The notes: generated by a model not told the origin, from the letters alone. Shown: positions 29,975-57,101, numbered from the stretch's first letter. The stretch is 64,000 nt of DNA from Candidatus Rariloculaceae bacterium (GCA_045561055.1 JBJKYL010000013.1:64495-128494), one strand, 5' to 3'. Numbers and translations are program-made.

Positions 29975-31670
29975 ATGATGACATTAGTAAAGAGTGTATT
30001 TGGATTTTTGGTGCTGGGTGCGCTGTGCGCTTGCACCCCAGAAACACCGATTAGTTTCTCCGTAGATCCTGAAACAGTAGCCGCTACGGACGGTCAGCCG
30101 AATATCCTTTTTGTCGTCCTTGATGATCTTGGCTTTACAGATATGGGCGCGTTCGGCAGCGAGATACCGACACCAAATATCGATCGGCTAGCATTTGAAG
30201 GCGTGCGGTTAACCAATCTGCATGCTGCCGCGAACTGTCAATCGGCTCGTATCATGTGGATGGCAAGCACGAGTATCGCAAATGGTATCGGTATCTATCC
30301 GAGAGATGTTGAGCGGCCGGCGGGTATTCGTGGGTCCTATTTAAGCCTGGAATACGCGACGATTGCGGAGCTCCTGCAGGATGCCGGATACCAAACCTTT
30401 ATGGCGGGTAAGTGGGATCTAGGGGGTTTAGAGCACTCGCCAGCAAGGCGTGGATTTGACCGTAGTTTTGCACTCCTTCCCGCATCAGCCGATTATTTCG
30501 GCAACAATCAACGCCCGATTTCTTACGAGGAGGACGGCCGGCCGGTAGCGCTAGACGAACTACCGGATGACTTTTATACGACTAATTATTTCACTGATAA
30601 AACGCTCGAGCATCTACAGGCAAGTGATCCAGATTCACCCTGGTTTGCATACTTATCTTTCAATGCTCCCCATTGGCCGCTCATGGCACCAAGACGACTG
30701 GCTCGACCGTCACGCTGGCCGTTACGATGACGGTTACGACGTGCTTCGTGAGCAACGCGTCGGGCGAGCGAGTGAGTTAGGGGTCGTGCCAGCAGGTTTG
30801 TCACTTGATTCTTTCGTTCCGGTTGCGGAGCCCTGGGATCAATTAAGCCAAGTTGAACAGCGGCGCTATTCACGTGCTCAGGAAATCTACGCGGCTATCG
30901 TTGAGCATACTGATATGAACATCGGTCGAGTTATCGATTACCTTGAAGAAACTGGACAGCTTGAAAACACAGTGGTCATGCTGATGTCGGACCATGGTGG
31001 TTCAGCTGCCGAATCCGGAGTGTCTACAGGCCGGCTACCGACCGAAGAAAATATCCGCGGCCTTGATCCCTCTGAGATTGATAATAGTTTGGAAAATTTT
31101 GGTCGTGGTAATTCATTTATCGATCATGGCATAGGTTTTGGCGAAGCGGCGAGCGCGCCATTTCGACAGTTTAAAGCGACCTTGAGTGAGGGTGGGTTAA
31201 CCGCTGCCGCGTACGTTCGTTACCCGAGTGTGGTGCCTGCCGGCGGAGTCAGCGATACGTTCTTGACTGTAATGGATATCTTGCCAACTTTTCTTGAGAT
31301 CGGCGGGACCGAGCATCCCGGTGCGGGTGAGTATCGTGGACGTTCCATTCACGGTATTCTCGGTCGGTCGTTCCTACCCATGCTAGTAGGCGAGACAGAG
31401 GTAGTTCATCCGCCGACCGAACCGTTTGGTTGGTATCGTGGCATTTCTGGCGCTCTAATTCGCGGTGACTATAAAATCATTAATGATATAGAGCTAAGTC
31501 CGGTAGCCGGTTTATCAGGGGAACGGGCCGGATTACCGTGGCGATTGTATAATTTGGCAACCGATCGCGGCGAAACTAATGATTTGGCGCTAGAATTTCC
31601 AGACCTTACAGCTGAGCTCGCGGCAGAATGGGAAGCGAATTGGCGTAGCCGAGAGGCTAGACATAATTAA
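29975..31670 (+). pseudogene. Cys-type arylsulfatase (paralog of 4286-5875) interrupted by one frameshift
   Basis: ORF 29963-30730 (likely ATG 29975 or 29978 after AGGTGAGGAG) carries PNILFVVLDDLGFTDMGAFGSEIPTPNID, NCQSARIMWMAS and FNAPHWPLMAP. The frame is then lost near 30686-30692. ORF 30567-31670 resumes DDWLDRHAGRYDDGYDVLREQR, colinear with the intact paralog (APHWPLQLPDAWLDRYAGRYDEGYDVLREER). Confidence 0.85.
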
Positions 31671-31701: not shown

Positions 31702-32715
31702 ATGACTCGTTTGGGCTTATTTTTAATGGTAGTTTTCGGTTCGACCGCAGCATTAGCCCATCATGCATTCAGTGCGTTCTATGACACTAATAATGTTGGT
31801 GATATCGAGGGCGAGCTGATTGAGACGTTCTGGATCAACCCACACGCGGGTTTCAGAATTCGTACCGACGACGGTGAAATTTGGAATATCGAGACAGCGC
31901 CCGTCAATCGCTTACAGCGGTTAGGACTTGCTGAAGCTATAGTAGTGGGCGATCGGGTTACTTTTTCTGGTGCCTTTTCGCGGCTGGGACGAAATGAAGT
32001 GCTCGCTACTAACGCGATTTTGGCGGATGGTCGGGAGGTTCTGCTAGATCCCGGTTTTGCCAATCGACTCGGACTTGCGGACCGCGTAACTTCTGGTGGA
32101 AGTGATGGAGCAGATCCCGTTGCGGTTGCTGGGGGTGCTGAGCCAGAAGGTATCTACCGTGTTTGGTCGCGCGCGCGCGGGCCGAACGATCAGGACCCTG
32201 AACGCACGTTTACATCAGCCGCTCTGGCAGCCAGAGCGGCTTGGGATCCGGTCGTTGATGATCCGGCACTTCGCTGTATTGCTCCGGGGATGCCGGTTGT
32301 GATGGATACGCCTTTCCCGATGGCGTTCGAAGAAGGAGATGGTCGAATTATTCTTCGTATAGAGCAATGGGACAGTGTCCGTAGTATTCACATCGATAGC
32401 GACCTGGACCCGCAAGCGCAACCTGACTCATTAATGGGGTATTCAGTCGGGCATTGGGAAGGACGGACGCTTGTTGTAGAGACGTCGAATATCAGCTGGC
32501 CTTATGTCGATGAGTTCGGTACGCCTAAAAGTGATGAGTTTACGATTGTTGAGCGCTTCACTTTTAGCGAGGACAGTCGTGGAATGACCTGGGAGGCGAC
32601 GTCCAATGATCCATTGACCTATGAGGGTTCTGCCTTTCTTGGTAGCGCTAGTTATGAATGGGTGCCTGGCGAAGAAATCAAGCCTTATAACTGTTCGCTT
32701 GGCGCTGCAGGCTAA
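31702..32715 (+). CDS. Exported fused N+C two-module protein, paralog L5
   Basis: MTRLGLFLMVVFGSTAALA|HHAFSAFYD, FWINPHAGF, GDRVTFSG. C-module has GIYRVWS, ALRCIAPGMP, MGYSVGHWEGRTLVVETSNISWPYV, VERFTFSED, SNDPLTYEG and PYNCS. Starts 31 nt after the broken sulfatase. Confidence 0.85.
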   Translation: MTRLGLFLMVVFGSTAALAHHAFSAFYDTNNVGDIEGELIETFWINPHAGFRIRTDDGEIWNIETAPVNRLQRLGLAEAIVVGDRVTFSGAFSRLGRNEVLATNAILADGREVLLDPGFANRLGLADRVTSGGSDGADPVAVAGGAEPEGIYRVWSRARGPNDQDPERTFTSAALAARAAWDPVVDDPALRCIAPGMPVVMDTPFPMAFEEGDGRIILRIEQWDSVRSIHIDSDLDPQAQPDSLMGYSVGHWEGRTLVVETSNISWPYVDEFGTPKSDEFTIVERFTFSEDSRGMTWEATSNDPLTYEGSAFLGSASYEWVPGEEIKPYNCSLGAAG

Positions 32716-33202: not shown

Positions 33203-34783
33203 GTGTCTTTGAAAGACTCAAAACCATTTGAATCATCTGACAAATCTTCAGATGTCGAGCAGTTTCGTCTACGGAATTTCATCACCAAGTTGGAGGAACT
33301 CGGTGAGCTGGATATTTGCGATGAGGCGATCCAGACCGCTGATATTGCGGTGCGTCTTGAGGGTAACTCGCGGGCAGTGTTATTCAACAATGTTGGTGCA
33401 GAGCAGGTTGATATTGTTGGGAACGTCATGGCATCCCGGTCGCGAATTGCAGCCGCATTCGGTGTTGAGGAAGCTGATGTTCTTGATGAGATTCGTAGTC
33501 GCCTCAAGACACCACAAACTCTCGTGGAGCTGGAGTCATCTAAAGCACCAGTTCAGCAGGAGGTGTGGTTGGGGGATGAGGCAGACTTAACGCGGCTCCC
33601 AGTTCCGTTCCAACATAGCGGCGATGGTTCTCTATATCTGTCCTCACCTATTGACGTTGTGCAGGATGCTGCGACGGGATTACATAATATCGGTTGCAGG
33701 CGTCTTATGTTGCGCGGGCGGAGAGAATGTGGCGTCGACTTGAATGCGCCTAGCGACTTGAGAGCGATATACGAAGATGCCGTTAAGGTAGGTAAACCAC
33801 TCCCAGTTAGTTTCATCCTGGGCGCTCACCCAATTGATCATTTTACTGGGGCGATGCGTGCACCGGGAGATGAACTAGAACTGATGGCGAAGTTACGGGG
33901 CACCTCCTTGCCGGTTGTAAAATGCGTTAGCAACGATTTACGCGTGCCCGCCGATGCCGAGTACGTACTTGAAGGTTACTTAAGCCCAGAGGGGCACGTT
34001 GAAAAAGAAGGTCCATACGGTGAATTTCTCGGTTACTACGGTGGCGTAAAACAGAACCCTGTTTTTCATTTAACGGCGATTACACGACGTAAGGATGCGC
34101 TATTTCAGACGACGACGATCGCTGGTCGGCGGCTCGACTGCACGGACACCTCGCAGCTCGTTTCGTTGAAGGCTGAGCTCGGAATTTGGGAGGCGCTGCG
34201 TACTGCGGTTCGCGATCCCATCGCAGTTAATGCGACGACTGCAAGCGGCGGCTGCTTTCATGCTCGCGTTGCGCTCAGGCAGCGCGCACCTGGTGATGCG
34301 CGCAACGCAATTGCCGCAGTACTGGGTAGTTTCATGAATGTGAAGCACGTCTTTATCGTTGATGAGGATATCGATATTTTTGATGATGCGCAGATGGAAT
34401 GGGCGTTAGCATCGCGATTTCAGGCAGACCGCGACTTCGTGGTGTTCGAAGGTATGAGGTTGCCACCCGTAGATCCCTCGATGGGTAAAGCAAGAGTCAG
34501 CGCCAAAGCTGGCTTCGATTTGACTATTCCTTTTGCTCAGCGTGGCAATGACGATTGGTTAGTGCCAGTCCCGCCGAATTTATCATCGACCGAGAAGCAG
34601 TTCAGCTCAGTAGCGGATGCGCTTCGTGATGGACCGAAGAGTTTTGAGGGGTTACTTCGTAGCTTAGGTTCGCAGGATGGTAGAGAAATCGTGCTTGAGC
34701 TAGAGGTTCTGAACAATGGGGGACAACTAGATAGTAGAGCAGAAGATGGAGCGTATAGATTAAAGACGCGTGATAAAAAATAA
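33203..34783 (+). CDS. UbiD-family (prFMN-dependent) aromatic acid decarboxylase
   Basis: GTG start. FRLRNFITKLEELGELDICDEAIQTADIAVRLEGNSRAVLFNNV, HPIDHF and EGPYGEFLGYYGG (UbiD EGPFGE-type motif). 526 aa. Its stop TAA shares one base with the next ATG (TAATG at 34781-34785). Confidence 0.85.
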   Translation: MSLKDSKPFESSDKSSDVEQFRLRNFITKLEELGELDICDEAIQTADIAVRLEGNSRAVLFNNVGAEQVDIVGNVMASRSRIAAAFGVEEADVLDEIRSRLKTPQTLVELESSKAPVQQEVWLGDEADLTRLPVPFQHSGDGSLYLSSPIDVVQDAATGLHNIGCRRLMLRGRRECGVDLNAPSDLRAIYEDAVKVGKPLPVSFILGAHPIDHFTGAMRAPGDELELMAKLRGTSLPVVKCVSNDLRVPADAEYVLEGYLSPEGHVEKEGPYGEFLGYYGGVKQNPVFHLTAITRRKDALFQTTTIAGRRLDCTDTSQLVSLKAELGIWEALRTAVRDPIAVNATTASGGCFHARVALRQRAPGDARNAIAAVLGSFMNVKHVFIVDEDIDIFDDAQMEWALASRFQADRDFVVFEGMRLPPVDPSMGKARVSAKAGFDLTIPFAQRGNDDWLVPVPPNLSSTEKQFSSVADALRDGPKSFEGLLRSLGSQDGREIVLELEVLNNGGQLDSRAEDGAYRLKTRDKK

Positions 34784-37170
34784 TGCAAATTAAATCTAAC
34801 GGTCGCGCGATAGGTCAATCGCTACTTCGGCGCGAGGACCGACGTTTGATTACCGGGCAAGGCCGCTTCAGCGATGATTTTAATCTTCCAGGCCAGTGTT
34901 ACGCCCAGCTCCTTCGGTCCCCTTACGCTCATGCGACGATAGAAAATATTGATGTTAGCGAGGCGTCTCATTTGCCGGGCGTTGTTGCGATTCTGACAGG
35001 TCAACACTGGAAGGTAGACGGTCACCGTAACATTCCTCATGTTGCCGATCCGGCAGACGGATGTGACCCAAGTTTCAAGACGTTCGCGGGCCGTGGTGGA
35101 TTCGTATTTGATGACGGGCAGCCCGTTATCGCCATAGATAAAGTGCGTCATGTAGGTGAGCCTGTAGCGATTGTGATTGCGGAATCTATTGATGTTGCGA
35201 GGAACGCAGTCGAGCAGATTGAGGTGGACTATCATGAACTGCCCGCGCATTCCATGATTGAAGCTGCATTGAAGTCTGATACCGATCTGATTTGGGATGG
35301 TGCGCCTGAAAATGTTTGTCTCGATACGCATATGTGGGACGAAGAAGTGATAGTCGACGCGGCCTTTGGGAATGCGGCACACGTTATTGAGAAAAAATTC
35401 GTCACAAACCGAGTGGTAGGTGGGCAAACTGAACCCAGGAGTGGCATCGGTAGTTTCGACAAAAAAAGCGGGCAGTACTTTTTATATGCCGGTAGCCAGG
35501 GGTCCATTCGTTTGAGAAATGGTTTGGCGCATGTGTTTGGTGTTTCTCCTGACAAGGTACGTGTCGTATCAGAAGATGTCGGCGGTGGTTTTGGCCCACG
35601 AAATTTTCTTTATCCCGATTTCGCTTTGTTACCTTGGGCCGCGCGGCGTATCGGTCGACCGGTGAAGTGGACGTCGACGCGTAGCGAGGCTTTTCAAAGT
35701 GATACGCAAGGCCGAGATAATATTTTAAATCTTTCCTTCGCTTTCGACGAGCAGCATCGGTTCGTAGCCGTGAAACTGGATTTTCTCGCTAATATCGGTG
35801 CCGCACCTGTTTCGTATGCACCAGTACAAAATGTGGCGCGCCTTACGACGTCGACCTACGATGTTCCTCTTACGCATACGCGTGTTCGGGGCGTACTGTC
35901 AAATACCGTTCCGACAGGTCCGTATCGCGGTGCTGGTCGGCCCGAGCTTGTGTATGCATTCGAGAGATTATTAGATATTTATGCGAGAGAGCAGGGGATC
36001 GATCGGATTGAATTAAGACGTAACAATCTGATTAGCCCCGATGTATTGCCTTATCAGGGAAGGACGGGGCTCGTTATCGATTCCGGTGAGTTCGAAAAAA
36101 CGATGAATCTAGCGATGGAGAAAATTGATTGGACTGGTTTCGAACAGCGGCGCGCAGATTCGTTGGCTGCTGGGCGCTTTCGTGGTATCGGGCTCGCAAG
36201 CTTCATGGAAATTCCAGTTGGTTTTCCGCATGAATCGATAAGACTTACAGTTCGCGGTGATAATAGGGTTGAGATAGTTGTTGGTACCCAGTGTATGGGT
36301 ATGGGGCATGCTACGGTTTTCCCTCAAGTGCTTTCTGACCAGTTGGGTATTTCTGTGGAGTCGATCAATCTTGTGACCGGTGACACGGATCAGTCAACGG
36401 TTGGCGGCGGTTCGCACTCGGATCGATCTATGCGTCTAGTTGGCACGTTAATTCTTAAAGCGTCTGAAGCGCTCATTGAGAAGGCTATGCCGCTCGCCGC
36501 ACAGAGACTCTGCGCTGAAGAGTCTAGTATTCATTTTGAACAGGGCGGGTTCCGTAGTGACGATACGGGTTCAGTAATTGGCTTGTTCGAGTTGGTAGCC
36601 TCGTGTGAGGACATAAAAGCAAATGATGACGGGATTAGGGTTCTAGTAATCGATGCGGAGATTCATGATCGGCTGCCGGCATATCCGAATGGTTGCGCGT
36701 GCTCTGAAGTCGAGATTGATCCACAAACGGGGAAAATCGAGTTGCTCCGCCATACGCTCGTTCACGATGCGGGCTTGGAAATTAATCCGATGATCTTGGA
36801 GGGTCAGAGTCACGGCGGTATTGCCCAGGGAATTGGGCAGGCGATGTGTGAGAGTTTCGTCTATGCTGACGAGGGAGCGCAAATACTTTCCGGAAGCTTC
36901 ATGGATTATTGCCTGCCGCGAGCCGATGACTTGCCTAACTTTACTATTGGGTCAAACCCGACGGCTACGGACAGCAACCCGTTAGGGATAAAAGGTGGCG
37001 GTGAGAGTGGGACGACTGCGGCGTTAGGCGCGTTCTTTAATGCTGCCAGCGATGCTCTTGTTTCTATCGGTATAGAAGAGGTGCCAATGCCTGCAACATC
37101 GAGTCAAATATGGCAGCTAATTCAATCCGCGCGGGATGAATCTTCCAATGAGGATAGGTCGGTCGCGTAG
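34783..37170 (+). CDS. Xanthine dehydrogenase/aldehyde oxidase-family molybdopterin-binding large subunit (CoxL-like, not form I CODH)
   Basis: GQSLLRREDRRLITGQGRFSDD N-terminus. The active-site loop reads GPYRGAGRPE, i.e. the generic AYRGAGR type rather than the AYRCSFR of true CO dehydrogenases. GGGFG motif (DVGGGFGPR). 795 aa. Confidence 0.9.
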   Translation: MQIKSNGRAIGQSLLRREDRRLITGQGRFSDDFNLPGQCYAQLLRSPYAHATIENIDVSEASHLPGVVAILTGQHWKVDGHRNIPHVADPADGCDPSFKTFAGRGGFVFDDGQPVIAIDKVRHVGEPVAIVIAESIDVARNAVEQIEVDYHELPAHSMIEAALKSDTDLIWDGAPENVCLDTHMWDEEVIVDAAFGNAAHVIEKKFVTNRVVGGQTEPRSGIGSFDKKSGQYFLYAGSQGSIRLRNGLAHVFGVSPDKVRVVSEDVGGGFGPRNFLYPDFALLPWAARRIGRPVKWTSTRSEAFQSDTQGRDNILNLSFAFDEQHRFVAVKLDFLANIGAAPVSYAPVQNVARLTTSTYDVPLTHTRVRGVLSNTVPTGPYRGAGRPELVYAFERLLDIYAREQGIDRIELRRNNLISPDVLPYQGRTGLVIDSGEFEKTMNLAMEKIDWTGFEQRRADSLAAGRFRGIGLASFMEIPVGFPHESIRLTVRGDNRVEIVVGTQCMGMGHATVFPQVLSDQLGISVESINLVTGDTDQSTVGGGSHSDRSMRLVGTLILKASEALIEKAMPLAAQRLCAEESSIHFEQGGFRSDDTGSVIGLFELVASCEDIKANDDGIRVLVIDAEIHDRLPAYPNGCACSEVEIDPQTGKIELLRHTLVHDAGLEINPMILEGQSHGGIAQGIGQAMCESFVYADEGAQILSGSFMDYCLPRADDLPNFTIGSNPTATDSNPLGIKGGGESGTTAALGAFFNAASDALVSIGIEEVPMPATSSQIWQLIQSARDESSNEDRSVA

Positions 37171-39613: not shown

Positions 39614-40177
39614 ATGAAAAATAGGTTTCTACTCGCAGTTATTGCCAGTGGACTCGTTCTGTTTTCTGATTTAGCAATATCGCACCATTCTTTTGCGCAG
39701 AGACTTGCAGGCGAAATAGAGTCGCTTGAATTTTATGACGGTACGATTGATCTTTATAGGATGCTCAATCCTCACAGCGCGCTGTTTCTGACGCTCGAAA
39801 ATGAGGACGGGAGTAACGCCGAATGGCTTATAGAACTCAGTTCTGCGTCGACGCTAGGCCGCGAAGGCTGGACGCCAGAATTACTCAGTTCGGGAGATCG
39901 AGTCTCCGTCGCGATCTTAGCGTCACGGACACCGAATCGTGGGCGACTTCGCGCTATGCTGGTGCATGGAACGAGTGATACAGAATCATCGAGACTTATC
40001 GTCGCATACGGTATCCGGGGAGACACGCCGATCATGCGACGACTGCGAGATAGGCTTCCGACGTGCGTGGGTATGGAAGGAAAGCTTAATAGAGGCGAGT
40101 GTTTTGTTGTGTCGCATGCCGTTTTACAAGATTTAGAAAATGAGTTTCCAGGGCAGATGGGTTATGTGATGCCATGA
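39614..40177 (+). CDS. Exported N-module-only protein (His-His/NPH) with extra C-terminal tail, paralog S4
   Basis: ORF track starts at 39590. ATG 39614 gives MKNRFLLAVIASGLVLFSDLAIS|HHSFAQRL, then RMLNPHSALFLTLENEDG, WLIELS and GDRVSVAI. The stop overlaps the next start as ATGA (40174-40177). Confidence 0.75.
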   Translation: MKNRFLLAVIASGLVLFSDLAISHHSFAQRLAGEIESLEFYDGTIDLYRMLNPHSALFLTLENEDGSNAEWLIELSSASTLGREGWTPELLSSGDRVSVAILASRTPNRGRLRAMLVHGTSDTESSRLIVAYGIRGDTPIMRRLRDRLPTCVGMEGKLNRGECFVVSHAVLQDLENEFPGQMGYVMP

Positions 40178-40905
40178 AAATATTTATTGGTCAATTGTTA
40201 TCAGAGAGAGTAGCGTTTTTTCTTGTAGCAGTAATGGGTGGTTTCTTCAGTTCTATTGTTTTTTCGCAACCACCGGATTTCTTCGGTAGATATGTAGGTG
40301 TATTGACGATAGAAGAGCCGGCAGAATATCTCCTTACCGAGCTAGGCCAGGATTCTTACGACAACTATGATCCTAACTATGGGGATCCGCGACAGTGGGA
40401 TGACTGCGCACTAGAAGGGATCCCACCGCTTTTGTTTACGCCCGGCGTCGCGACCGTTGACCTGCTTGAGCTCGACGACGGTAATATTGAGATGCGATAC
40501 GAACGCGATGATGCGATACGCACCGTGCACATGAATTTAGAAGGATTTTCTGAGGATCAATCCGATTCTCCACTAGGTTACTCGCACGGATATTGGATCG
40601 ATAACATACTAACCATAGAAACTTCGAGTTTGGCGGGAGGCGTTGTCATTGCCCAGAAGCGCTATCCAATAAGTGTGGATGCTCATGTGACCGAGCGCTA
40701 TTGGCGTGAGCCAGGTGATAATGATTTAAAGATGGAGGTTGTGGTCGACGATCCCGTGAACTATAGAAAACCGATCAAGATCGGACGGACCTGGGTCTGG
40801 TCGCCAGATGCGCCGCTTTTGCCATGGGATTGTGTCGGCCTCGGACAAAGACATAGCGAAGATTTAGATATTAGTGAACTCAGACGCATGCTAGAAGAGC
40901 AATAA
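40174..40905 (+). CDS. Exported C-module-only protein, paralog C3
   Basis: Hydrophobic N-terminus, then WDDCALEGIPP, LGYSHGYWIDNILTIETSS, TERYWREPGD, VDDPVNYRKP and PWDCV. Ends 11 nt before the coxG-like gene. Confidence 0.75.
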   Translation: MKIFIGQLLSERVAFFLVAVMGGFFSSIVFSQPPDFFGRYVGVLTIEEPAEYLLTELGQDSYDNYDPNYGDPRQWDDCALEGIPPLLFTPGVATVDLLELDDGNIEMRYERDDAIRTVHMNLEGFSEDQSDSPLGYSHGYWIDNILTIETSSLAGGVVIAQKRYPISVDAHVTERYWREPGDNDLKMEVVVDDPVNYRKPIKIGRTWVWSPDAPLLPWDCVGLGQRHSEDLDISELRRMLEEQ

Positions 40906-40916
40906 ATTAGTTTCGG

Positions 40917-41483
40917 ATGGATATCTCTGGTGAATATCGTTTGTCGATGGGGCGTCAAGAAGTTTGGGATGCGCTCCTAGATCCATCGATTCTTCGTCGC
41001 TGTATCCCCGGTTGCGAGGAGTTAGAGCAGCTAGGGGACGATCGATATCGTGCGAAGGTCAGAGCCGCAATCGGTCCAGTCAAAGCGACCTTCACGAGTA
41101 CGCTCGAAATTACGAATTCAAATCCGCCGAATAGTTACCGGTTGGAAGGAGAAGGGAAGGCAGGCGCCATTGGTTTTGGCAAAGGTTTTTCAGACGTAAC
41201 GTTGATCGATGAAAATGGAGTCACAGTGCTTCGTTATTCGGCAGAGTTTCAGGTAGGGGGACGTCTCGCGCAACTCGGTTCTCGCCTAGTAGTTGCCGCA
41301 ACAAGAAAAATAGCGGACGAGTTTTTTAATCGATTGACTAACGATATTGATGATAGCGCAGAGCGTATAGTGCCAGACATAGCCGTGGGACCTAGCCGAA
41401 AAGCTTGGGCTTTTGTAGCGCTTGCAGGGGTAGTATTAGTAGTTGCTATTTGGTGCTTGTGGGGCTTTTGGGCTACGAATTAG
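40917..41483 (+). CDS. CoxG-like SRPBCC protein with C-terminal membrane anchor
   Basis: MDISGEYRLSMGRQEVWDALLDPSILRRCIPGCEELEQLGDDRYRAKV is the CoxG/SRPBCC signature. The C-terminus WAFVALAGVVLVVAIWCLWGFW is a single hydrophobic helix. Confidence 0.8.
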   Translation: MDISGEYRLSMGRQEVWDALLDPSILRRCIPGCEELEQLGDDRYRAKVRAAIGPVKATFTSTLEITNSNPPNSYRLEGEGKAGAIGFGKGFSDVTLIDENGVTVLRYSAEFQVGGRLAQLGSRLVVAATRKIADEFFNRLTNDIDDSAERIVPDIAVGPSRKAWAFVALAGVVLVVAIWCLWGFWATN

Positions 41484-41501
41484 ATCTTAAGGATGGGATG
41501 A

Positions 41502-41975
41502 GTGACAGTTTCAATTTCATTGACAGTGAACGGTGAATCGGTCTCCGCTGAAGTCGATTCCCGTATGCTTCTCGTAGAGTTACTACGCGAGGAACTCGGA
41601 CTGACCGGAACGCACGTTGGTTGTGATACTAGTCAATGTGGTTGCTGTGTCGTGCACATGGACGGTAGATCGGTAAAGAGCTGTTCGATTCTTGCTGTTA
41701 CTGCTAGAGATGCTGATGTGACTACAATCGAAGGTTTAGCATCGGGAGATACACTCCACCCGATGCAACAGGCATTCCACGAAAATCACGGTCTACAATG
41801 TGGTTTTTGTACGCCTGGGATGATCATGAGTGCAGTAGACCTTGTTGAGCGGAATCCGGATCCGAGCGAGGCTGAGATTCGTAAATGGCTCGACGGTAAT
41901 TTATGTAGGTGCACCGGTTACCATAATATTGTCAAATCTATAAAGGCTGCTGCTGCTGCCGTTCGGGGCGATTGA
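41502..41975 (+). CDS. [2Fe-2S]-binding small subunit of a molybdenum hydroxylase (CoxS-like)
   Basis: [11 protein letters not shown] (plant-type cluster), and [12 protein letters not shown] plus CRCTGY (second cluster). 157 aa. Confidence 0.9.
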
Positions 41976-41976
41976 A

Positions 41977-42777
41977 GTGTATCCGTTTGACTATCACCGG
42001 CCTACTTCATTGAAAGAGGCTACCAATCTGTTCCAGGCCGCGGATGATCCGCAGTGGTTGGCTGGTGGTATGACACTACTTCCCGCGATGAAGCTGCGGC
42101 TTACAGCGCCGTCAAATCTTATCGACTTAGCGGGATTAGATGATCTCAAAGGGTTGGAAAAAATAAACGGGAGTATTCATGTTGGTGCGATGACGCTTCA
42201 TGATGTTGTTGCGAGGTCACCCGATGTACGTCAGAACATACCCGCACTGGCGGCGTTAGCCAGTGGTATTGGTGATTCCCAGGTGAGGAATCGGGGTACT
42301 ATTGGCGGCTCAATATCTAACAGCGATCCAGCTGCTGATTATCCTGCCGCTATCCTGGGACTAGACGCTACTATCATCACGACATGCCGTCAGATTGCGA
42401 GCGACGATTTTTTTACCAATCTTTTTGAGACGGCTTTAGAGTCTGGGGAAATAGTCAAACAGGTTAGCTTCCCTATTCCCGACTGTGCCGGTTACGTTAA
42501 GTTTCCGAATCCCGCTTCCCGCTATGCAATCGTAGGTGTTATGGTTTCGAAAACTGGTTCTGCGGTTCGAGTCGCGATTACAGGTGCTGGCGCTTCGGCT
42601 TTTCGTGTTGCAGAGATGGAGCAGGCGCTGATGGCTGATTTTAGGCCTGAGGTATTGCACGAGATTCAAATTTCTTCTGACGATCTTAACGAGGATCTTC
42701 ATGCTAGCGCTGAATATCGAGCCCACCTCGTTAACGTCATGGCGCGACGGGCGGTCGGGCTGGCTTGCGGCGCTTAG
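41977..42777 (+). CDS. FAD-binding medium subunit of a molybdenum hydroxylase (CoxM-like)
   Basis: GTG start 1 nt after the CoxS stop. YHRPTSLKEATNLF, AGGMTLLPAMKLRL, RNRGTIGGSISNSDPAADYP and HASAEYRAHL. Confidence 0.85.
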   Translation: MYPFDYHRPTSLKEATNLFQAADDPQWLAGGMTLLPAMKLRLTAPSNLIDLAGLDDLKGLEKINGSIHVGAMTLHDVVARSPDVRQNIPALAALASGIGDSQVRNRGTIGGSISNSDPAADYPAAILGLDATIITTCRQIASDDFFTNLFETALESGEIVKQVSFPIPDCAGYVKFPNPASRYAIVGVMVSKTGSAVRVAITGAGASAFRVAEMEQALMADFRPEVLHEIQISSDDLNEDLHASAEYRAHLVNVMARRAVGLACGA

Positions 42778-45496: not shown

Positions 45497-46291
45497 TTAA
45501 TTTACATCTTCGTCAAGGAAACTTTCAAACGAGCTAAAATCTAGGTAGTCGCCCGAACAACTAATCTCGCTTAACTCCCAGTTTACAGGTGCAAGCCGAT
45601 AGTAAAGCGTCTCTGCAATCCATGGCTCGGCCAGCGCGATTGGGTCTTCCATTGTGATATCGATTTCGAGATTGAGATTGTCAATGCGGCGGAAAACTTC
45701 TGTTACTTTCAATTGGTCGCTGTGTTGGTAGCCAGAACGATCCATCCATGTTCTTTCGTCGATACCGACAGTCGTCACGATGAAGGTCGTATCGTTTTGC
45801 CATTCGCCTACTGAGTTTCCGAGCCACAGCATTACGGGGTCCTCTGGGCTCTCGCGCCCGTCCGTATAAATGCGTCGAATAGTGTGGTCGTACTCATAGA
45901 GTAGAATGGTCTCTTTTTCTGTGTAAACGACTTCGAAGGGATATGGATGGAAATAGACACGCGGTACCCCGGGTGGATAGCAGCGAGTAAGGACCGGATC
46001 GTTAGTTTCGCCCAATGCGAAGGCGCCCGCGTTAGAGTTTTTCGCCTGTTCAAAGAGTGTCTGTCCCCATTCCGTCAGAATCGGTGGCTCGGGTGTCCAG
46101 GTTGAGCCGCTACGGAAAGTCCCTTCAGGGCTGATTCTCGTCCAGACTCCAGTGAGATCACGAGCAGGCGCTGGACCGTCTACATGGGGGGTAACTGTCG
46201 TTGGAGATCCGGTACCGAACTGGGCGGAGCTGCCTTGGGAAAACCCAAGCGCCACTGCGGCTAGTAAAATCGTTATTGTTATTAGGCGCAT
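45497..46291 (-). CDS. Exported C-module-only protein, paralog C4
   Basis: Signal peptide MRLITITILLAAVALGFSQGSSA|QF. LTGVWTRIS, LTRCYPPGVP, LGNSVGEWQNDTTFIVTTVG, TEVFRRIDN, MEDPIALAEP and EISCSG. Confidence 0.75.
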   Translation of the reverse strand: MRLITITILLAAVALGFSQGSSAQFGTGSPTTVTPHVDGPAPARDLTGVWTRISPEGTFRSGSTWTPEPPILTEWGQTLFEQAKNSNAGAFALGETNDPVLTRCYPPGVPRVYFHPYPFEVVYTEKETILLYEYDHTIRRIYTDGRESPEDPVMLWLGNSVGEWQNDTTFIVTTVGIDERTWMDRSGYQHSDQLKVTEVFRRIDNLNLEIDITMEDPIALAEPWIAETLYYRLAPVNWELSEISCSGDYLDFSSFESFLDEDVN

Positions 46292-46425: not shown

Positions 46426-46851
46426 TTATCGTAACGAGTGTGTTCCGATGCTTTCACCAGTCGTCAGGTCGATTGATTCCCAAAGCGCGATGTTTTCACC
46501 ATTAGGCATGATTATTTCCCTAATATGAACCGCGTGACCGCCATTTCGGGCTTGGGCCCCACTGATACGAATTTTGCTTCCTGGTACGAGTGTGTTCTTT
46601 GTCCAGCCGCCTCGTGCTAGTTTATTCGGAGCGGTTAGCTCGCCCGACCAATGTTGAATTTCGCCATTTTCAAGGGTCACGTCGAAGTAAACCTGCGAAT
46701 GCGGGTTAATGAATTTGAACTCGGTAACAGTGGCATCGAGTTTTACCATGTGCTCGCCGTAGGCAGCTCTACCGTGATGGGCGAACGCCGCAGCACTAAT
46801 GAGCAACGCGGTGAAGCTAGCCGCAATTAGCAAAAATTTGTGATTAGTCAT
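46426..46851 (-). CDS. Exported N-module-only protein (His-His/NPH), paralog S3
   Basis: MTNHKFLLIAASFTALLISAAAFA|HHGRAAYGEHMVKLDATVTEFKFINPHSQVYFDVTLENGEIQHW...GSKIRISG; 141 aa. Lies 134 nt upstream of C4 on the same strand. Confidence 0.85.
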   Translation of the reverse strand: MTNHKFLLIAASFTALLISAAAFAHHGRAAYGEHMVKLDATVTEFKFINPHSQVYFDVTLENGEIQHWSGELTAPNKLARGGWTKNTLVPGSKIRISGAQARNGGHAVHIREIIMPNGENIALWESIDLTTGESIGTHSLR

Positions 46852-51630: not shown

Positions 51631-52587
51631 TTATCGGGCAAGCGCGCTACTTATCGCTTCGAGATTGCTACGTAGTATTTTTTGCAGGCCATCGTTGACC
51701 AGCAGACGGTTCTCGACGATGCCGGGATCAGCCGAGTTCAGTACGACCAGTATGGCTCCCGCGGCTTTGATGGCATTCTGAATTGCGTCGCTAGGTTCCC
51801 ACTTGTGGAGAACGACCTGAATATTCCGTTCTAGTAGGTGGCCGGTTAACCTGACTAGGTCTTCCTCGGTCCAGCGTATGTCCTGCTTAATGAAATAGCC
51901 GTCCACATACAGGCCCATATCATTAGTTAGGTAGACGAAGTCTCCAGTGAGGGCGAAGACTGTATCGTTACCGGCTTCGATAAGTTTTCCTTGGTACTCG
52001 TTACGCATATTGAGAAGTGACCGCTTCAAGTTATCTAGATTCGTTTGAATCGTGTTTATATGGTCAGGGAAAAGCTTAATTAGATCGTGCGCTATGTTAT
52101 CGGCCATACGTATCGAATTAGACACGCTAAGCCAGAAATAAGGAGCAACGATGGAGTTGATTGGATTCGTGTCAGTACCCCAGTCGACGTTTGAAACTGG
52201 TAAATCCGCTAGCCCGACTCCGGCTCGATTTAATGACCAGGGCAAGGCGGCATCAATATTCACGACGCGTATGTTGACGTCTCGAGCGAAACGATACAAC
52301 GGGTCTCCTGGGAGTACATTCGTGAGTGATATGACAGCAGTTGCGGTGGCAAAAGCACCTTCCAGACTACCCGTACGCCTCGCGATGTAATCTCTTAGTA
52401 TTGACATCTGCCGGCCGTCTTCAGGGACGTTGATTATCTCGATTGGAGTTTCACGCGTTAACGCAGTTGCCAGTGAATAGGTTGCCTGCATGCTGGTCAG
52501 AATCGTGTCGGCTGCCTGCACTTTTGCGGATAGCAAAATGAGAAGCGCTATAAATCCAGGGAATAATGTGATAGCTAATCTAATCAT
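51631..52587 (-). CDS. TroA/ZnuA-fold substrate-binding-protein paralog lacking the canonical metal ligands
   Basis: Signal peptide ...SAKVQA|ADTIL, and colinear with cluster A-I binding proteins. The ligand motifs are substituted: VPEDGRQ in place of DPHxYEP, APYFWLS in place of NPHxWL, LTGDFVYL in place of [HE]xAFxY. Last gene of the minus-strand metal operon. Confidence 0.55.
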   Translation of the reverse strand: MIRLAITLFPGFIALLILLSAKVQAADTILTSMQATYSLATALTRETPIEIINVPEDGRQMSILRDYIARRTGSLEGAFATATAVISLTNVLPGDPLYRFARDVNIRVVNIDAALPWSLNRAGVGLADLPVSNVDWGTDTNPINSIVAPYFWLSVSNSIRMADNIAHDLIKLFPDHINTIQTNLDNLKRSLLNMRNEYQGKLIEAGNDTVFALTGDFVYLTNDMGLYVDGYFIKQDIRWTEEDLVRLTGHLLERNIQVVLHKWEPSDAIQNAIKAAGAILVVLNSADPGIVENRLLVNDGLQKILRSNLEAISSALAR

Positions 52588-52605
52588 TGATATAGATGCT
52601 GAAAA

Positions 52606-53511
52606 CTACACGCTGGCTTCCCGGTAACGGGGGAGGACCATGCGGATGATCATTGTAACCACAAAGATCATCGCTGCCGTTAGGATGATAGCCCCACCCG
52701 ACGGTATCGGTAGATTCCATCGCATCGGTGCATAGATACCGATCAGGCAACTAGTAGTGGAAAAGATAATGCTCCAGGTGACGAATCCTCTAATCGTTCG
52801 ATTGAGATTGCGCGCGGCTGCAGCAGGAATAAGTAGTAGGGCTTCAACCAATACGGCACCTACAATTTTGACACAGGCAACAGTCAAGATCGTTATAAGT
52901 AATACGAACACATACTCTAGCAAGTGAACATTAATACCACGGACGTGCGCAAGACTTGGGTTAAGACTAGCCAGCAGCATTTGATTGTAGAGTGGTATAG
53001 CGATCGCAGCAGTAATAATTGCCGTCGCCATAAGGACGTTCATGTCAGTATCATTAACCGTGAGTATCGAGCCGAACATAACCGTGTCGAGTATATGCGT
53101 GTTCACTCGTGCCGAGACCCAGAGGAGCGCAGTGGCACCTATTGCCAGCGATATCGACAGGAAGACGCCTATCAACGTGTCCGTAGACATCTTCGTGCGA
53201 TTCTTAGAGAAGTTAAGAAATAGAGCGAACAGAATGCAAAAGCTGAACATTGAGAAATAAGGAGCTGTGTAGGATTCGCCTATGATCACACCGATAGCGA
53301 TACCAGTTAATGCCGCGTGACCAATGGCCTGAGAAAAAAACGCCATACGCTTGATTACTACCATTGTTCCGATGCCACCTAGAAGTGGTCCGATCAAAAG
53401 GGCACAGAGAAATCCGTTCGCGACGAACGCATAGCTGAACGTATAATGGATTACACCGTCGTTGGCTAGACCAATGACGAACTGGCGCAGTATTTCGTAT
53501 AGTGCTTCCAT
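52606..53511 (-). CDS. Metal ABC transporter permease (ABC-3, ZnuB/TroC-like)
   Basis: 301 aa with about 8-9 hydrophobic segments. FSQAIGHAALTGIAIG is typical of ABC-3 permeases. Confidence 0.85.
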   Translation of the reverse strand: MEALYEILRQFVIGLANDGVIHYTFSYAFVANGFLCALLIGPLLGGIGTMVVIKRMAFFSQAIGHAALTGIAIGVIIGESYTAPYFSMFSFCILFALFLNFSKNRTKMSTDTLIGVFLSISLAIGATALLWVSARVNTHILDTVMFGSILTVNDTDMNVLMATAIITAAIAIPLYNQMLLASLNPSLAHVRGINVHLLEYVFVLLITILTVACVKIVGAVLVEALLLIPAAAARNLNRTIRGFVTWSIIFSTTSCLIGIYAPMRWNLPIPSGGAIILTAAMIFVVTMIIRMVLPRYREASV

Positions 53512-53515
53512 CGTC

Positions 53516-54244
53516 TTAGTTTGCTTCTACGTCGGAAGTGTTTTGGAATATAGGATTTGGGAAGAGTTGTCCGGCGATGGTACTTTTTAGGACATCTCGT
53601 GGCGGACCGTCCAGGAAAACTTTTCGGTCGATATACGTTAGTGTTTGTGCGAGCTCGCGGACTTGAGCGATATCGTGGTTGATCCACACGACCGTCCCAC
53701 CGGTTTGAGAGAACTCTACGATCAGCTGTTCTAGGATTTCTCTACCCTCAAGATCTAGTCCCGTCATGGGTTCGTCGAGTACGAGTAGTGAAGGCTCGGG
53801 TATCAATGCCTGTGCGAATAGAACACGCTGACGTTCCCCGCCGGAGAGGCTGCCCAGTTTCGATTTCCCCTTCTCCCCCATCCCAACGCGGTCTAGGACT
53901 TTGTTAATCTCGGCAAGGGGTTGGCGAGTGATACCTAAGAAAACCGGTTTTCGTTGGCGAGCCATCCCCATAAAATCGAGTACCGTGACCGGGAGTGTTT
54001 GATCAAAATTGAGGGTTTGCGGGACGTAGCCAATAGCTTGGCTATCGTTCCATTGGATTAAAATTTTACCTGAGTGGGGCATCTGGCCCAGCATCGCACG
54101 GACAAGCGATGTCTTACCGCCGCCGTTAGCCCCAACAATACAGTGGATCTCGCCGGACCGAATGGCGAAACTGACGCCCTGTAATATCCGAGTGCTACCG
54201 AGACTTAGATTGACGTCTTCAAACTCGATTGATGGTCCTCGCAT
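53516..54244 (-). CDS. Metal ABC transporter ATP-binding protein (ZnuC-like)
   Basis: Walker A GANGGGKTS, Q-loop, signature LSGGERQR, Walker B LLVLDEP and H-loop INHD. Confidence 0.9.
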   Translation of the reverse strand: MRGPSIEFEDVNLSLGSTRILQGVSFAIRSGEIHCIVGANGGGKTSLVRAMLGQMPHSGKILIQWNDSQAIGYVPQTLNFDQTLPVTVLDFMGMARQRKPVFLGITRQPLAEINKVLDRVGMGEKGKSKLGSLSGGERQRVLFAQALIPEPSLLVLDEPMTGLDLEGREILEQLIVEFSQTGGTVVWINHDIAQVRELAQTLTYIDRKVFLDGPPRDVLKSTIAGQLFPNPIFQNTSDVEAN

Positions 54245-54274
54245 TAAAGCTTCCTAATAATTTCTACGATTCGA

Positions 54275-55189
54275 TTACGATGCATCCTGAGCGACGTCGT
54301 TAATAGCTTGCGCCAGTGTGTCTAAGTTTTCGCGCATTTCATTGACAAATTTGTCGGACGTGTAGGGACCGCTACTGATATGAGATATCGAATACATTCC
54401 GACATCGGTCGCCTCCTGAATCGTGTCTGATAAACGGCTAGCAAAATATTTTTCGGCGAACAGCACGTTTACATTGGCGAGGTTGATCCGGTCGATAGTG
54501 TCAGCCATTTGCCGCGCCGTTGGTTCTACGCCATGCCGTGGTTCTATGACCGCCGATACCTGTAGGCCAAGTTCTTGGAGGATATAGTCATAGCCGCTAT
54601 GCATGGTTGCGGAAACAAAGTTTGATAGGTTCGTGCCTGAGACTTTAGTGTCGAAATCTGCGCGTAGCTTGCGGATTTCTAGTGCGTATTGACGTGCGTT
54701 GTTACGAAAAAAATCGGCGTTATTCGGATCTAGTTCGCCTAGTACGCGCGCGATAGAATAGATCTGCTGGATGGCGGCTGTCGTGGATATAAACGTGTGT
54801 GGATTGACCACTTTTTCGCCGCTGTTATCTCCTGTTACTGGTATAAGAGAAACGCCGTCATTGGCATATATCAGTGGAATCTTATCCCGCATACCAGCAG
54901 CATCAAGAATCTCGAACGCCCAAGAGTCATGGCCGATACCGTTGACGACGAGGACGTCCATTGATGTCGTACGCATCATATCGGCCGGTTGCGGTGTATA
55001 GCCATGCGGGTTCGCATCCCCATCAATCATCGGGATAGTCTCTGCACGGTCACCTACAATATTAGCGACGAAGCTGTAATAAGGATGTAGCGTAATACCT
55101 ATACGCAGTGTTTGAGCGCACGCTTCATTACCGACTATAGCTAGTAACAAGCTGATAGCGATTCCGAGTTTCTTAGATATCATAAACAT
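54275..55189 (-). CDS. Metal (Zn/Mn-type) ABC transporter substrate-binding protein with intact His ligand motifs
   Basis: ORF track runs to 55258. ATG 55189 (MFMISKKLGIAISLLLAIVGNEACA) avoids overlap with the upstream gene. LRIGITLHPYYSF, ANPHGYTPQP, VNPHTFIS and TMHSGYDYILQELGL correspond to the cluster A-I ligand motifs. Confidence 0.85.
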   Translation of the reverse strand: MFMISKKLGIAISLLLAIVGNEACAQTLRIGITLHPYYSFVANIVGDRAETIPMIDGDANPHGYTPQPADMMRTTSMDVLVVNGIGHDSWAFEILDAAGMRDKIPLIYANDGVSLIPVTGDNSGEKVVNPHTFISTTAAIQQIYSIARVLGELDPNNADFFRNNARQYALEIRKLRADFDTKVSGTNLSNFVSATMHSGYDYILQELGLQVSAVIEPRHGVEPTARQMADTIDRINLANVNVLFAEKYFASRLSDTIQEATDVGMYSISHISSGPYTSDKFVNEMRENLDTLAQAINDVAQDAS

Positions 55190-55202
55190 AGAGAAACACC
55201 GG

Positions 55203-55847
55203 TTACTCTCCGAAGATCCTTTCAACTTCTTGATCACCACTGTAGGCGACGACTTCACGCCAACCTTGAAGAATCAATGAATCGCGAAATCCGCTCTCTG
55301 GCATTTCCGCATGATTACTCGGTCTCCACCAGACAAGGCCTGAGTTCGTGTTAGTAAATCCAGCATGGACATGGTGGATAACGAGCAGGAAGGAACCCTG
55401 ATCCGGAAGTTGCCCATCTGTTCCTAAGTACATTGTGGATCCCTGCATTTCACCTTCTGGAAGTGGTTCGTGTAGTGACCATTTCAATGAACCGTTCTGT
55501 TCCCAGCTTGTATCTTGGAAAAACGGTGGCAACAAATAATCTTGAAAGTCCTGAAGGTTTGGCCAGCGAAATTTTACGCCCGGTTCGTTAAAAAGATTGA
55601 TGTCATCGTAGATGTATGGAATCTCGTCCTTGACCGTATAAAGCGAGTTGTAGATTGCCTGATCCGCGCCGGTTAAAGTATTAAATGCGCTGATCTGCCA
55701 GTCGTAGATGGCCTCAGGTTGTCCGGTTTGCTCACGGCTTCCGAGGTAAAAACCTAGGGCGCTACCTATGATTATTGTCGCCGCGAATATTATAACTCCT
55801 TCGAGGCGACTTCCGGATGGTCGGACATAATAAGTCGTGGAAGTCAC
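55203..55847 (-). CDS. Membrane-anchored periplasmic protein of unknown function (possibly DUF6162-type, recollection only)
   Basis: One N-terminal TM helix (GVIIFAATIIIGSALGFYLG) followed by a soluble domain with LLVIHHVHAGF. Gaps to both neighbours are 8 and 13 nt. Confidence 0.5.
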   Translation of the reverse strand: MTSTTYYVRPSGSRLEGVIIFAATIIIGSALGFYLGSREQTGQPEAIYDWQISAFNTLTGADQAIYNSLYTVKDEIPYIYDDINLFNEPGVKFRWPNLQDFQDYLLPPFFQDTSWEQNGSLKWSLHEPLPEGEMQGSTMYLGTDGQLPDQGSFLLVIHHVHAGFTNTNSGLVWWRPSNHAEMPESGFRDSLILQGWREVVAYSGDQEVERIFGE

Positions 55848-55855
55848 CGGAATAG

Positions 55856-56701
55856 TTAGTTACTCATTTCTGTGGCTTTTATCCACAGTACAGCATCGAG
55901 GGATAAATCTTTTTCGTTGTGCTTTACCTCGTTGTCTAGATCGAGTGCGCAGATCCCCCACCATCCTGCCTTCGGTAATCCGATCGTTACCTCACCTTGT
56001 GCATTAGCTCTGATGCTAAGCGTGATGAATGAGTTTTGTGGCGGGATTATTTTTGCGTTGGCAGAGAAGCGGTGTTGTTCAATTTGTGGTTCGTGATTTA
56101 GATATTCAACTTCTATCTCGGCATGGGGGACCGGCTGTCCTTCCGCTAGCACGACAGCGCGAAAGACGCCGCCAACCCAGTTGGCATAAGGCTTATCAAG
56201 CGGAACGATTTCAACCGGTAAACCGAGAGGCTTATCCCAGTTACCCGGTATACCGCCGACGTTAATTACGGTTTTTGTTATCTGCTGTATGTACTTGTCT
56301 TCCGCCTCTTCGTAGTAAGGGGAGGGATGAAGGACGAAAGTGTAGTCACCCAGAGAGCGCGTAACGTTTCTCGGTGGATAGGCGACATATGCGGCTGCCG
56401 CGCTATCAACGCCAGACCATATAACAGGTTCAAGATACTGTAAAAGATCTGTCTCGCGCGGTGCGGTTTCTGAGCCGCGCTGGCTGATAACGTAGAAAGC
56501 TTCTGGTTCTCCCATATTCATTGTGTAACCGTTGTTAAAGGGATGAGAGAAAACTAGTGCGAGCGGCAGCGCATGCGATTCGGTGAGTGCCGCATCAGGG
56601 GTGTAAAGAAGTTGGAAATGCGAGAATGCTGGGGAACCGAATGCGCCGAACAGTAATGTACCTGACAGAATAATTGCAGGCTTTAGGCGGGTCGGGCGCA
56701 T
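55856..56701 (-). CDS. Periplasmic DUF4198-like protein
   Basis: ORF track runs to 56824 and overlaps the upstream gene. ATG 56701 gives MRPTRLKPAIILSGTLLFGAFGSPAFS|HFQLLYTPD, so the mature N-terminus is His. The all-beta-looking sequence is typical of DUF4198 proteins found with metal uptake genes. Confidence 0.6.
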   Translation of the reverse strand: MRPTRLKPAIILSGTLLFGAFGSPAFSHFQLLYTPDAALTESHALPLALVFSHPFNNGYTMNMGEPEAFYVISQRGSETAPRETDLLQYLEPVIWSGVDSAAAAYVAYPPRNVTRSLGDYTFVLHPSPYYEEAEDKYIQQITKTVINVGGIPGNWDKPLGLPVEIVPLDKPYANWVGGVFRAVVLAEGQPVPHAEIEVEYLNHEPQIEQHRFSANAKIIPPQNSFITLSIRANAQGEVTIGLPKAGWWGICALDLDNEVKHNEKDLSLDAVLWIKATEMSN

Positions 56702-56714
56702 GGCCTTTGTTGCT

Positions 56715-57101
56715 CTATTCCTCAATGTCACGACCATCGATCTGAACGATATGTCCATCGCCACCCTCGAATTCCACATGGAAGTTTTCTTGCGGCTTGG
56801 TAAAGGTAAAATCGCTTTGATCACTCATAGTTCCTTCTATCAATATTTTTCCGCTACCATTAAGGATACGCATTGGTACGCCCGCGGCGGTACCGCCGTC
56901 TGAAAAACCACCCTCGCATGTAATCGTACCATCGCCGTTGTCATAGCAGTCACAGATCGGCGTATGTGCATATACCAGTTGCAGTATGCTAGCGGATAGG
57001 AGCAGAGAAAACGCAACCTTTTGAGTCACTACTGTTGGCTTTTTAGTGCTTCGAGGCAATTTGTACCGTGATCCTTTCGTAGTTTCATCAATGCTATTCA
57101 T
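56715..57101 (-). CDS. Small secreted Cys/His/Asp/Gly-rich protein, first gene of the metal operon
   Basis: ...SILQLVYA|HTPICDCYDNGDGTITCEGGFSDGGTAAGVP...HVEFEGGDGHIVQIDG. The mature part is about 85 aa, begins with His and has three Cys within 15 residues. Confidence 0.5.
   Translation of the reverse strand: MNSIDETTKGSRYKLPRSTKKPTVVTQKVAFSLLLSASILQLVYAHTPICDCYDNGDGTITCEGGFSDGGTAAGVPMRILNGSGKILIEGTMSDQSDFTFTKPQENFHVEFEGGDGHIVQIDGRDIEE

Follow-up and report, generated by a model that had tools for sequence, protein, structure and literature searches.

Using six-frame translation of a 64-kb window (the whole stretch of DNA analysed here, 64,000 nucleotides from a Candidatus Rariloculaceae bacterium, GCA_045561055.1 JBJKYL010000013.1:64495-128494), we found exactly nine open reading frames (ORFs) in which an adjacent His-His pair (HH) is followed 15–45 residues later by [NA]PH. 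Each one encodes a domain of the DUF6152 family (Pfam PF19649), which we call the N-module. Eight of the nine score above the family's gathering threshold of 27 bits (39.7–81 bits); the ninth, at 19750-20817, reaches 22.6 bits, below the cutoff, and is recovered by our own family hidden Markov model (HMM; Table 1). The one other Pfam match is a sub-threshold hit of a single copy to DUF4131 (18.7 bits against a cutoff of 31.6). NCBI records label homologs “DUF6152 family protein,” no NCBIfam model matches the N-modules, and searches of PDB sequences with a single protein or with the N-module profile returned no significant relative. DUF6152 is an already catalogued family whose function is undescribed, and the pattern of its conserved histidines suggests a putative metal site of an undescribed kind.

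Five of the nine N-modules are the N-terminal part of longer fused proteins, and four are stand-alone. The stand-alone protein encoded at 46426-46851 reads MTNHKFLLIAASFTALLISAAAFA/HHGRAAY…FINPH…, where the slash marks the predicted signal-peptidase site. The initial annotation of this DNA had listed nine such junctions with HH placed exactly after the signal peptide, and all nine were recovered exactly. The segment before each HH is 19–32 residues long; it has Lys or Arg near its start and a hydrophobic core, and small residues occupy its −3 and −1 positions. A third His lies 27–35 residues into the mature chain within the motif [WFM]x[NA]PH; its invariance holds as annotated, and the annotated first position, [WFML], had to be narrowed because Leu stands there in no copy. 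The motif is NPH in eight copies and APH in one (19750-20817), the sole copy with Ala for Asn, which also has a longer tail between HH and the first strand. MAFFT alignments of the nine copies contained only four invariant columns (H1, H2, P26, and H27) at 18–33% identity to the first aligned sequence, in keeping with the remark that little else is invariant. Because the nine copies are paralogs, their shared HH and NPH reflect conservation and not chance coincidence, and retention across the family is therefore a meaningful test of the motif. The motif was retained, as follows.

Table 1. Window coordinates of the DUF6152 N-modules, the separately encoded C-modules, and the predicted N-terminal-His proteins of the metal-uptake operon (aa, amino acids; slash, predicted cleavage site)
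Feature	Coordinates	Strand	Junction	HH codons	NPH codons	Evidence
Stand-alone DUF6152 N-module, 141 aa, signal peptide 24 aa	46426-46851	-	AFA/HHGR	46774-46779	46699-46707	PF19649 E=7.2e-23; codons from translation
Stand-alone N-module	15001-15399	+	VLA/HHSF	15079-15084	15157-15165	Pfam E=2.7e-19
Stand-alone N-module	22711-23133	-	AYA/HHGT	23047-23052	22969-22977	Pfam E=6.7e-21
Stand-alone N-module, longer tail; alternative start at 39590	39614-40177	+	AIS/HHSF	39683-39688	39767-39775	Pfam E=1.7e-15
Fused N+C	1608-2693	+	SSA/HHAI	1704-1709	1782-1790	Pfam and C-module HMM
Fused N+C	7718-8728	+	GFS/HHSR	7775-7780	7847-7855	Pfam and C-module HMM
Fused N+C	18541-19641	-	TLG/HHSR	19555-19560	19477-19485	Pfam E=3.8e-21
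Fused N+C	19750-20817	-	VNA/HHGG	20728-20733	20629-20637 (APH)	Family HMM E=1.8e-23
Fused N+C, modelled as a two-domain structure	31702-32715	+	ALA/HHAF	31759-31764	31837-31845	Pfam
C-module protein, 264 aa, with a signal peptide; next gene downstream of 46426-46851	45497-46291	-				HMM E=9.4e-25
C-module protein, 273 aa; gene starts within the end of N-module gene 15001-15399	15368-16189	+				HMM E=4.8e-13
Orphan C-module protein, 304 aa, same cluster, no N-module of its own	13052-13966	+				HMM E=9.6e-17
C-module protein, 243 aa; gene overlaps preceding N-module gene 39614-40177 by 4 nt	40174-40905	+				HMM E=2.3e-31
DUF4198 protein, predicted mature N-terminus	55856-56824	-	AFS/HFQLLY			PF10670 E=2.5e-49, 168.7 bits (cutoff 34)
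Small Cys-rich exported protein	56715-57101	-	VYA/HTPICDC			NF058648 E=3.3e-11, 43.5 bits (cutoff 100)

Searched exhaustively with HMMER, a set of 1.84 billion cluster representatives (50% identity clusters) yielded 12,622 matches to the nine-paralog profile at E ≤ 1e-3 and 5,891 at E ≤ 1e-10. With a single protein as query, relatives were found in metagenome-assembled genomes (MAGs) of Rariloculaceae, Arenicellaceae, Cellvibrionales, Rhodospirillaceae, and Acidobacteria, and the nearest 120 homologs of the 46426-46851 protein carry A-x-A/HHGR and [VI]NPH without exception (120/120). We counted motifs in the best 150 of the 12,622 representatives. HH occupies profile positions 1–2 of the first domain in 146 of them, the other four being 5′-truncated or without the region, and xxPH is present in 152 of 158 domains (NPH in 150). 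At independent loci, including Acidobacteria, both motifs occur in 42 of 42 complete domains; the Asn is sometimes Ser or Gln, and the His never varies. The expected persistence of HH and NPH in homologs from other genomes is confirmed by these counts. A column census on an alignment anchored on HH, which makes H1 and H2 100% by construction, added D8 (76%), G17, W24, N26, P27, H28, G40, W45 (99%), E48 (93%), R57, G59, G68, D69, G75, and G95 to the conserved set.

The signal peptide, of the canonical Sec type, was characterized in the 139 representatives with HH within their first 70 residues. Residue −1 is Ala in 117, Gly in 16, and Ser in 5 (138/139), and residue −3 is nearly always Ala, Val, Leu, Ser, Thr, or Gly. 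All 139 contain a hydrophobic core (a 9-residue window with a Kyte-Doolittle mean above 1.7), and 137 have Lys or Arg in the n-region. The median position of HH is 25, after a signal peptide with a median length of 24 residues, and residue 3 of the mature chain is Ser, Gly, Ala, or Asn in 139/139 as well as in all nine copies. The best −3/−1 site lies directly before HH in the nine copies, in 146 of the 150 representatives, and in each of the 42 domains from independent loci. The small-residue rule noted for the nine junctions is thus obeyed there and in 138–139 of the 139 representatives. Based on sequence features of this kind, cleavage most likely occurs directly before His1, so that the mature chain would begin His1-His2. 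One 794-residue stop-to-stop ORF in another locus (L014) looked like a fusion with an internal HH; it was rejected as an artefact of 62% GC content, with an internal start followed by the signal peptide …AAVNA/HHSN.

AlphaFold2 models built with family alignments were of high confidence. The model of the fused protein at 31759-32712 had a predicted local distance difference test (pLDDT) score of 90.6 and a predicted template modelling (pTM) score of 0.86, with only the linker at 113–125 disordered, and that of the stand-alone 46426-46851 protein had a pLDDT of 85.9. The modelled N-module consists of a long first strand, two further strands, a helix, and then strands 4 and 5. For this module, Foldseek searches of the PDB returned only proteins of the oligonucleotide/oligosaccharide-binding (OB) fold: SSB, PriB, the anticodon-binding N-domain of LysRS, Stn1/Ten1, and PolD (E 4e-4 to 1e-2; TM scores of about 0.5–0.65 normalised to the target). 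The predicted structures therefore show the DUF6152 N-module as an OB fold. Strand 1 is preceded by a tail of fixed length, HH-[S/G/A]-x3-4-[F/Y]-D. NPH lies in the loop between strands 1 and 2, where Asn-Pro-His makes a tight inter-strand turn in the models and its Asn and Pro probably have a structural role. Strand 3 ends with the near-invariant Trp45 and Glu48. In the DSSP register this part of strand 3 is paired with the beginning of strand 2, so these two residues should neighbour the NPH His at one barrel end.

In the five long proteins, the N-module is followed by a second domain of about 190 residues, the C-module. An HMM for it identified nine copies in the window: the five fused ones, three directly downstream of stand-alone N-modules, and one orphan. 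Separately encoded C-modules carry signal peptides of their own. The N-then-C gene pair seen at 46426-46851 and 45497-46291 also occurs in Ca. Rariloculaceae and other MAGs, N-C fusions make up 41 of the 150 representatives, and a C gene directly follows a stand-alone N gene in 11 of 18 loci, including Acidobacteria; the reverse order also occurs. Fusion and fission together with conserved adjacency indicate that the N- and C-modules act together. The initial annotation had suggested that the N-module may be a small periplasmic metal-binding or redox domain; it missed that the family already has a Pfam entry, that the domain is an OB fold, and that this domain forms one half of a two-module system. 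In one case, the N-module gene at 22711-23133 overlaps by 4 nt a downstream gene for a 580-residue FG-GAP repeat protein (20972-22714, minus strand) instead of a C-module; the presence of this protein in the C-module's place suggests alternative partners for the OB module.

Neither Pfam nor NCBIfam contained a match to the C-module at a threshold as permissive as E = 5, and a profile search of PDB sequences found no relative; the C-module appears to be an undescribed domain family partnering DUF6152. Its model is a roughly eight-stranded meander after short helices. Run on the two-domain model, Foldseek matched this domain weakly to FABP1, CRBP1/4, and CRABP2 (E from about 7e-3 to 1e-2; target-normalised TM of about 0.5), and the module may be a calycin/FABP-like barrel. 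No conserved His was found in its alignment. Its invariant residues look structural (Gly, Ser, Thr, a D-P turn, and a near-invariant Cys pair), and the Cys pair fits an oxidising compartment.

The invariant histidines invite comparison with proteins that bind metal at their N-terminus. In the histidine brace, the terminal amine, the N-delta of His1, and the N-epsilon of a second His hold one copper in a T-shape. Like the lytic polysaccharide monooxygenases (LPMOs, AA9–AA17), CopC/PcoC, YcnI, DUF4198, DUF6702, and Ang-1/Ang-2, DUF6152 proteins are exported and have a predicted cleavage-exposed His1 and a conserved internal His. Unlike these families, DUF6152 has an OB fold, an adjacent His2, and a calycin-like partner, and it has no sequence similarity to them. 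The comparison with LPMO, CopC, and YcnI made in the initial annotation is legitimate as an analogy. Membership in these or other known copper families was ruled out: the fold is OB and not a beta-sandwich of the Ig-like or fibronectin-like type, PF19649 is the only family above threshold, and the sequences are unrelated to those of known copper proteins. An ATCUN motif (amino-terminal Cu(II)- and Ni(II)-binding, NH2-X-X-His) was likewise ruled out, as residue 3 is never His in the 139 representatives or the nine copies.

His at +1 after a signal peptide is rare (2.6%), and a search for conserved His1 led to four new metal-binding families, DUF4198, DUF6702, Ang-1, and Ang-2 (PMC12537917, Nat Commun 2025). 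DUF6152 was not among these, which bound metal tightly and had little or no enzyme activity (PMC12537917). In the four tested families, the conserved His predicted metal binding (PMC12537917). His1 conservation in DUF6152 (at least 97%) equals or exceeds the values published for DUF4198 (79%) and DUF6702 (65%) (PMC12537917). The metal-binding analogy of the initial annotation accordingly stands insofar as His at +1 is an accepted predictor (PMC12537917); its suggestion of copper found no support, since no observation favours that metal over others.

Among OB-fold proteins that bind metal in the periplasm, CusF and SilF come closest to DUF6152. All are small periplasmic OB-fold domains in which a conserved His and Trp sit on strands 2 and 3 near one barrel end, with a ligand at the third position after the Trp (WxxM in CusF, WxxE in DUF6152). 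Unlike CusF, DUF6152 has no Met-Met ligand pair, and by strand position its conserved cluster lies at the opposite barrel end; CusF is also independent of residue 1 and is a single-copy gene inside an efflux operon, whereas DUF6152 is multi-copy. Homology to CusF was ruled out (hhalign probability 0.7% against E. coli CusF, no CusF Pfam match, no conserved Met), and DUF6152 lacks the CusF/SilF ligand set H-x7-W-x2-M-x-M. According to the authors of the SilF study, no OB-fold proteins other than CusF and SilF serve solely to bind metal ions (PMC10656224). Only one existing annotation hints at copper, the automatic label “uncharacterized cupredoxin-like copper-binding protein” of a 128-residue homolog from JGI (P0031), for which the OB-fold model offers no support.

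Based on these comparisons, we propose the following mechanism. The protein is exported through its Sec signal peptide and most likely cut by signal peptidase I directly before His-His, so that the mature OB domain would start with His1-His2. His1 (possibly with its free amine), His2, the NPH His, and perhaps Glu48 would form one mononuclear transition-metal site, with Trp45 as a cap. This site would be analogous, not homologous, to those of LPMO, CopC, YcnI, and DUF4198, and copper or nickel would be a first guess, by analogy only. The N-module would act with the calycin/FABP-like C-module, either within one fused protein or with the separately exported product of a neighbouring gene. The OB domain would carry the metal and the barrel would provide the pocket, and the pair would bind a ligand or act catalytically around the metal. 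A new OB-fold class of N-terminal-His metalloprotein that works with a ligand-binding barrel is the explanation we tentatively favour, as a serious possibility that falls somewhat short of probable. The broader idea that OB plus calycin-like partner constitutes a new, very large class of periplasmic two-module metalloenzymes, in which a histidine-brace-like His1-His2-His centre with copper or a different redox metal oxidises or otherwise transforms small organic substrates held in the barrel and paralog expansion in marine and soil Proteobacteria and Acidobacteria reflects substrate diversification, seems quite unlikely at present.

Several observations weigh against the proposed site. The HH tail forms a short turn before strand 1 and is the lowest-confidence ordered part of the models (pLDDT 74–77 over the first ten residues). 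In the standard OB topology, strand 1 begins at the barrel end opposite to the loop between strands 1 and 2; the tail would need to fold back, or the site would need to form across subunits or domains. Alternative small-residue cleavage sites lie a few positions upstream of HH in several copies. The column census found no conserved Met or Cys in the DUF6152 domain that would hint at Cu(I), no cop, cus, nik, znu, or other copper, nickel, or zinc homeostasis genes stand beside DUF6152 at the window copies and the loci examined, and literature searches for DUF6152 and PF19649 found no paper. Tandem DUF6152 pairs, present in 8 of the 150 representatives, add to this list. Four of the eight internal second domains, all from other genomes (P0170, P0171, P0172, and P0176), keep HH (HHSY…) with NPR, KPR, or nothing in place of NPH, and P0192, in which both domains are internal, has NPH twice and no HH. 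That each motif persists alone is evidence against an absolute interdependence of the two. Of the remaining second domains, one has DPH without HH and the others have neither motif, so the full triad is found in none of the eight. The complete triad therefore occurs only where HH can be a free N-terminus, which fits a need for one and speaks for the idea put forward in the initial annotation. The four domains with HH alone imply that the pair has some role independent of a free amine, and in internal domains it seems to need neither the amine nor the third His.

The same tandem proteins bear on an explanation without any metal, in which HH and NPH are structural, bind an anion, an organic acid, or heme, or determine processing or sorting. 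The separate persistence of the motifs, the tight turn with its probably structural Asn and Pro, and a gene context without metal-related genes speak for it. CcmE, an OB-fold periplasmic heme chaperone, binds heme through a His in a flexible tail, but DUF6152 has no CcmE-type HxxxY motif, since the aromatic residue after HH is interchangeably Phe or Tyr. A pure sorting signal would not need the internal His, and we know of no N-terminal sorting signal of the HH kind. Three invariant imidazoles and a conserved carboxylate in a fast-diverging exported domain are most simply a metal site, and we regard the metal-free explanation as unlikely. If the metal is real, it need not belong to DUF6152. 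In tissue inhibitors of metalloproteinases (TIMPs), the amine and carbonyl of residue 1 of an OB-fold domain chelate the catalytic zinc of the target metalloproteinase, and in serralysin inhibitors, which are calycin barrels, a free N-terminal residue ligates the metal of the target protease. By analogy, DUF6152 could be an inhibitor, regulator, or assembly factor whose free N-terminus ligates the metal or cofactor of a partner. Its OB fold with a strictly conserved fixed-length tail, the restriction of the full motif to N-terminal positions, the existence of an obligate partner module, and metal-dependent hydrolases in the neighbourhood (a metallo-beta-lactamase-fold protein at 13971-14981, an amidohydrolase at 8753-9859, and sulfatases) fit this idea. 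TIMP and serralysin inhibitors differ from DUF6152 in that residue 1 is Cys or Ser and the metal belongs to the target protease; no similarity to either was seen, and no TIMP is among the top 50 Foldseek matches. Ligation in trans also leaves the invariant NPH His and Trp45/Glu48 unexplained, the C-module has no conserved His or Cys metal ligands, its invariant residues looking structural, and the neighbouring enzymes vary between loci. Such a role is improbable.

A simpler function for the same site would be metal capture or trafficking alone, with the N-module as a periplasmic metallochaperone or scavenger in the manner of CopC, YcnI, CusF, or the “anglerases” that passes copper, nickel, or zinc to a partner. 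The domain is small (about 100 residues), TonB-dependent receptors lie near some loci, the four tested N-terminal-His families bound metal tightly with little or no enzyme activity (PMC12537917), and CusF and SilF are OB-fold periplasmic chaperones (PMC10656224). We nonetheless doubt this alternative and give it a low probability. There are at least nine paralogs in 64 kb here and three per 12–17 kb in other genomes, the paralogs diverge to 18–33% identity, at none of the examined loci do they sit in a metal-homeostasis operon, and the metal-uptake operon of the window (51.6–57.1 kb) has N-terminal-His proteins of its own and no DUF6152. Massive paralogy, divergence everywhere except the site, and the missing operon thus argue away from a housekeeping metal chaperone. 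The tight coupling of the N-module to a calycin-like barrel is a further objection, as this fold typically holds small organic ligands.

Cleavage-exposed conserved histidines are what led to the LPMOs. If metal is bound, the explanation that we favour would give the OB fold its first N-terminal-histidine site, would provide a role for thousands of hypothetical proteins, and would define the calycin-like partner domain, which is now without a family model. The family is large (12,622 clusters at 50% identity) and abundant in uncultured marine, sponge-associated, and soil lineages, and its N-terminal His-His is more strictly conserved than the His1 of families that have already been validated. 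The DUF6152 site is a good experimental lead, as a hypothesis that rests on conservation.

The metal-uptake operon at 51631-57101 (minus strand) encodes a NikL-like protein, DUF4198, DUF6162, ZnuA, an ABC ATPase, an ABC-3 permease, and a second ZnuA-like protein. DUF6162 is itself uncharacterised, and the NikL-like assignment, that of the small Cys-rich protein at 56715-57101, is sub-threshold. Both of the junctions annotated here are present in the translation (Table 1); the true start of the DUF4198 ORF is probably an internal Met. The accompanying remark on DUF4198 is supported by published structural work, in which the family binds nickel via the N-terminal His (PDB 9GCB, His1 plus His18) (PMC12537917). 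A phmmer search of the PDB with the window's DUF4198 protein did not reach 9GCB at E < 0.01.

The neighbours of the DUF6152 genes in the window encode exported hydrolases and binding proteins and are varied; they include the hydrolases mentioned above (with more than one metallo-beta-lactamase-fold protein), NHL and FG-GAP propellers, YceI, an esterase, GGT, and a TonB-dependent receptor. Neighbours are equally varied in other genomes, often with two or three DUF6152 genes within 12–17 kb. There is synteny with a Candidatus Rariloculaceae (Gammaproteobacteria) MAG across GGT, DUF6152, a 263-residue protein, a GntP permease, and CO-dehydrogenase-type subunits. Xanthine-dehydrogenase/CO-dehydrogenase-type genes (33203-37170 and 40917-42777) flank one DUF6152 pair; those at 40.9–42.8 kb encode CoxG-like, [2Fe-2S], and FAD-binding subunits, an arrangement that is the same in the Ca. 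Rariloculaceae MAG (L004). A TonB-dependent receptor is split, with Plug and beta-barrel in separate ORFs (27438-28490 and 28587-29612, both on the minus strand), and may be a frameshifted pseudogene or an assembly error. Two sulfatase-like ORFs, at 23167-24381 (minus strand) and 30567-31670 (plus strand), match PF00884 only partially (profile positions 48–300 and 180–300, respectively) and may be truncated genes, pseudogenes, or genes with mis-set starts.

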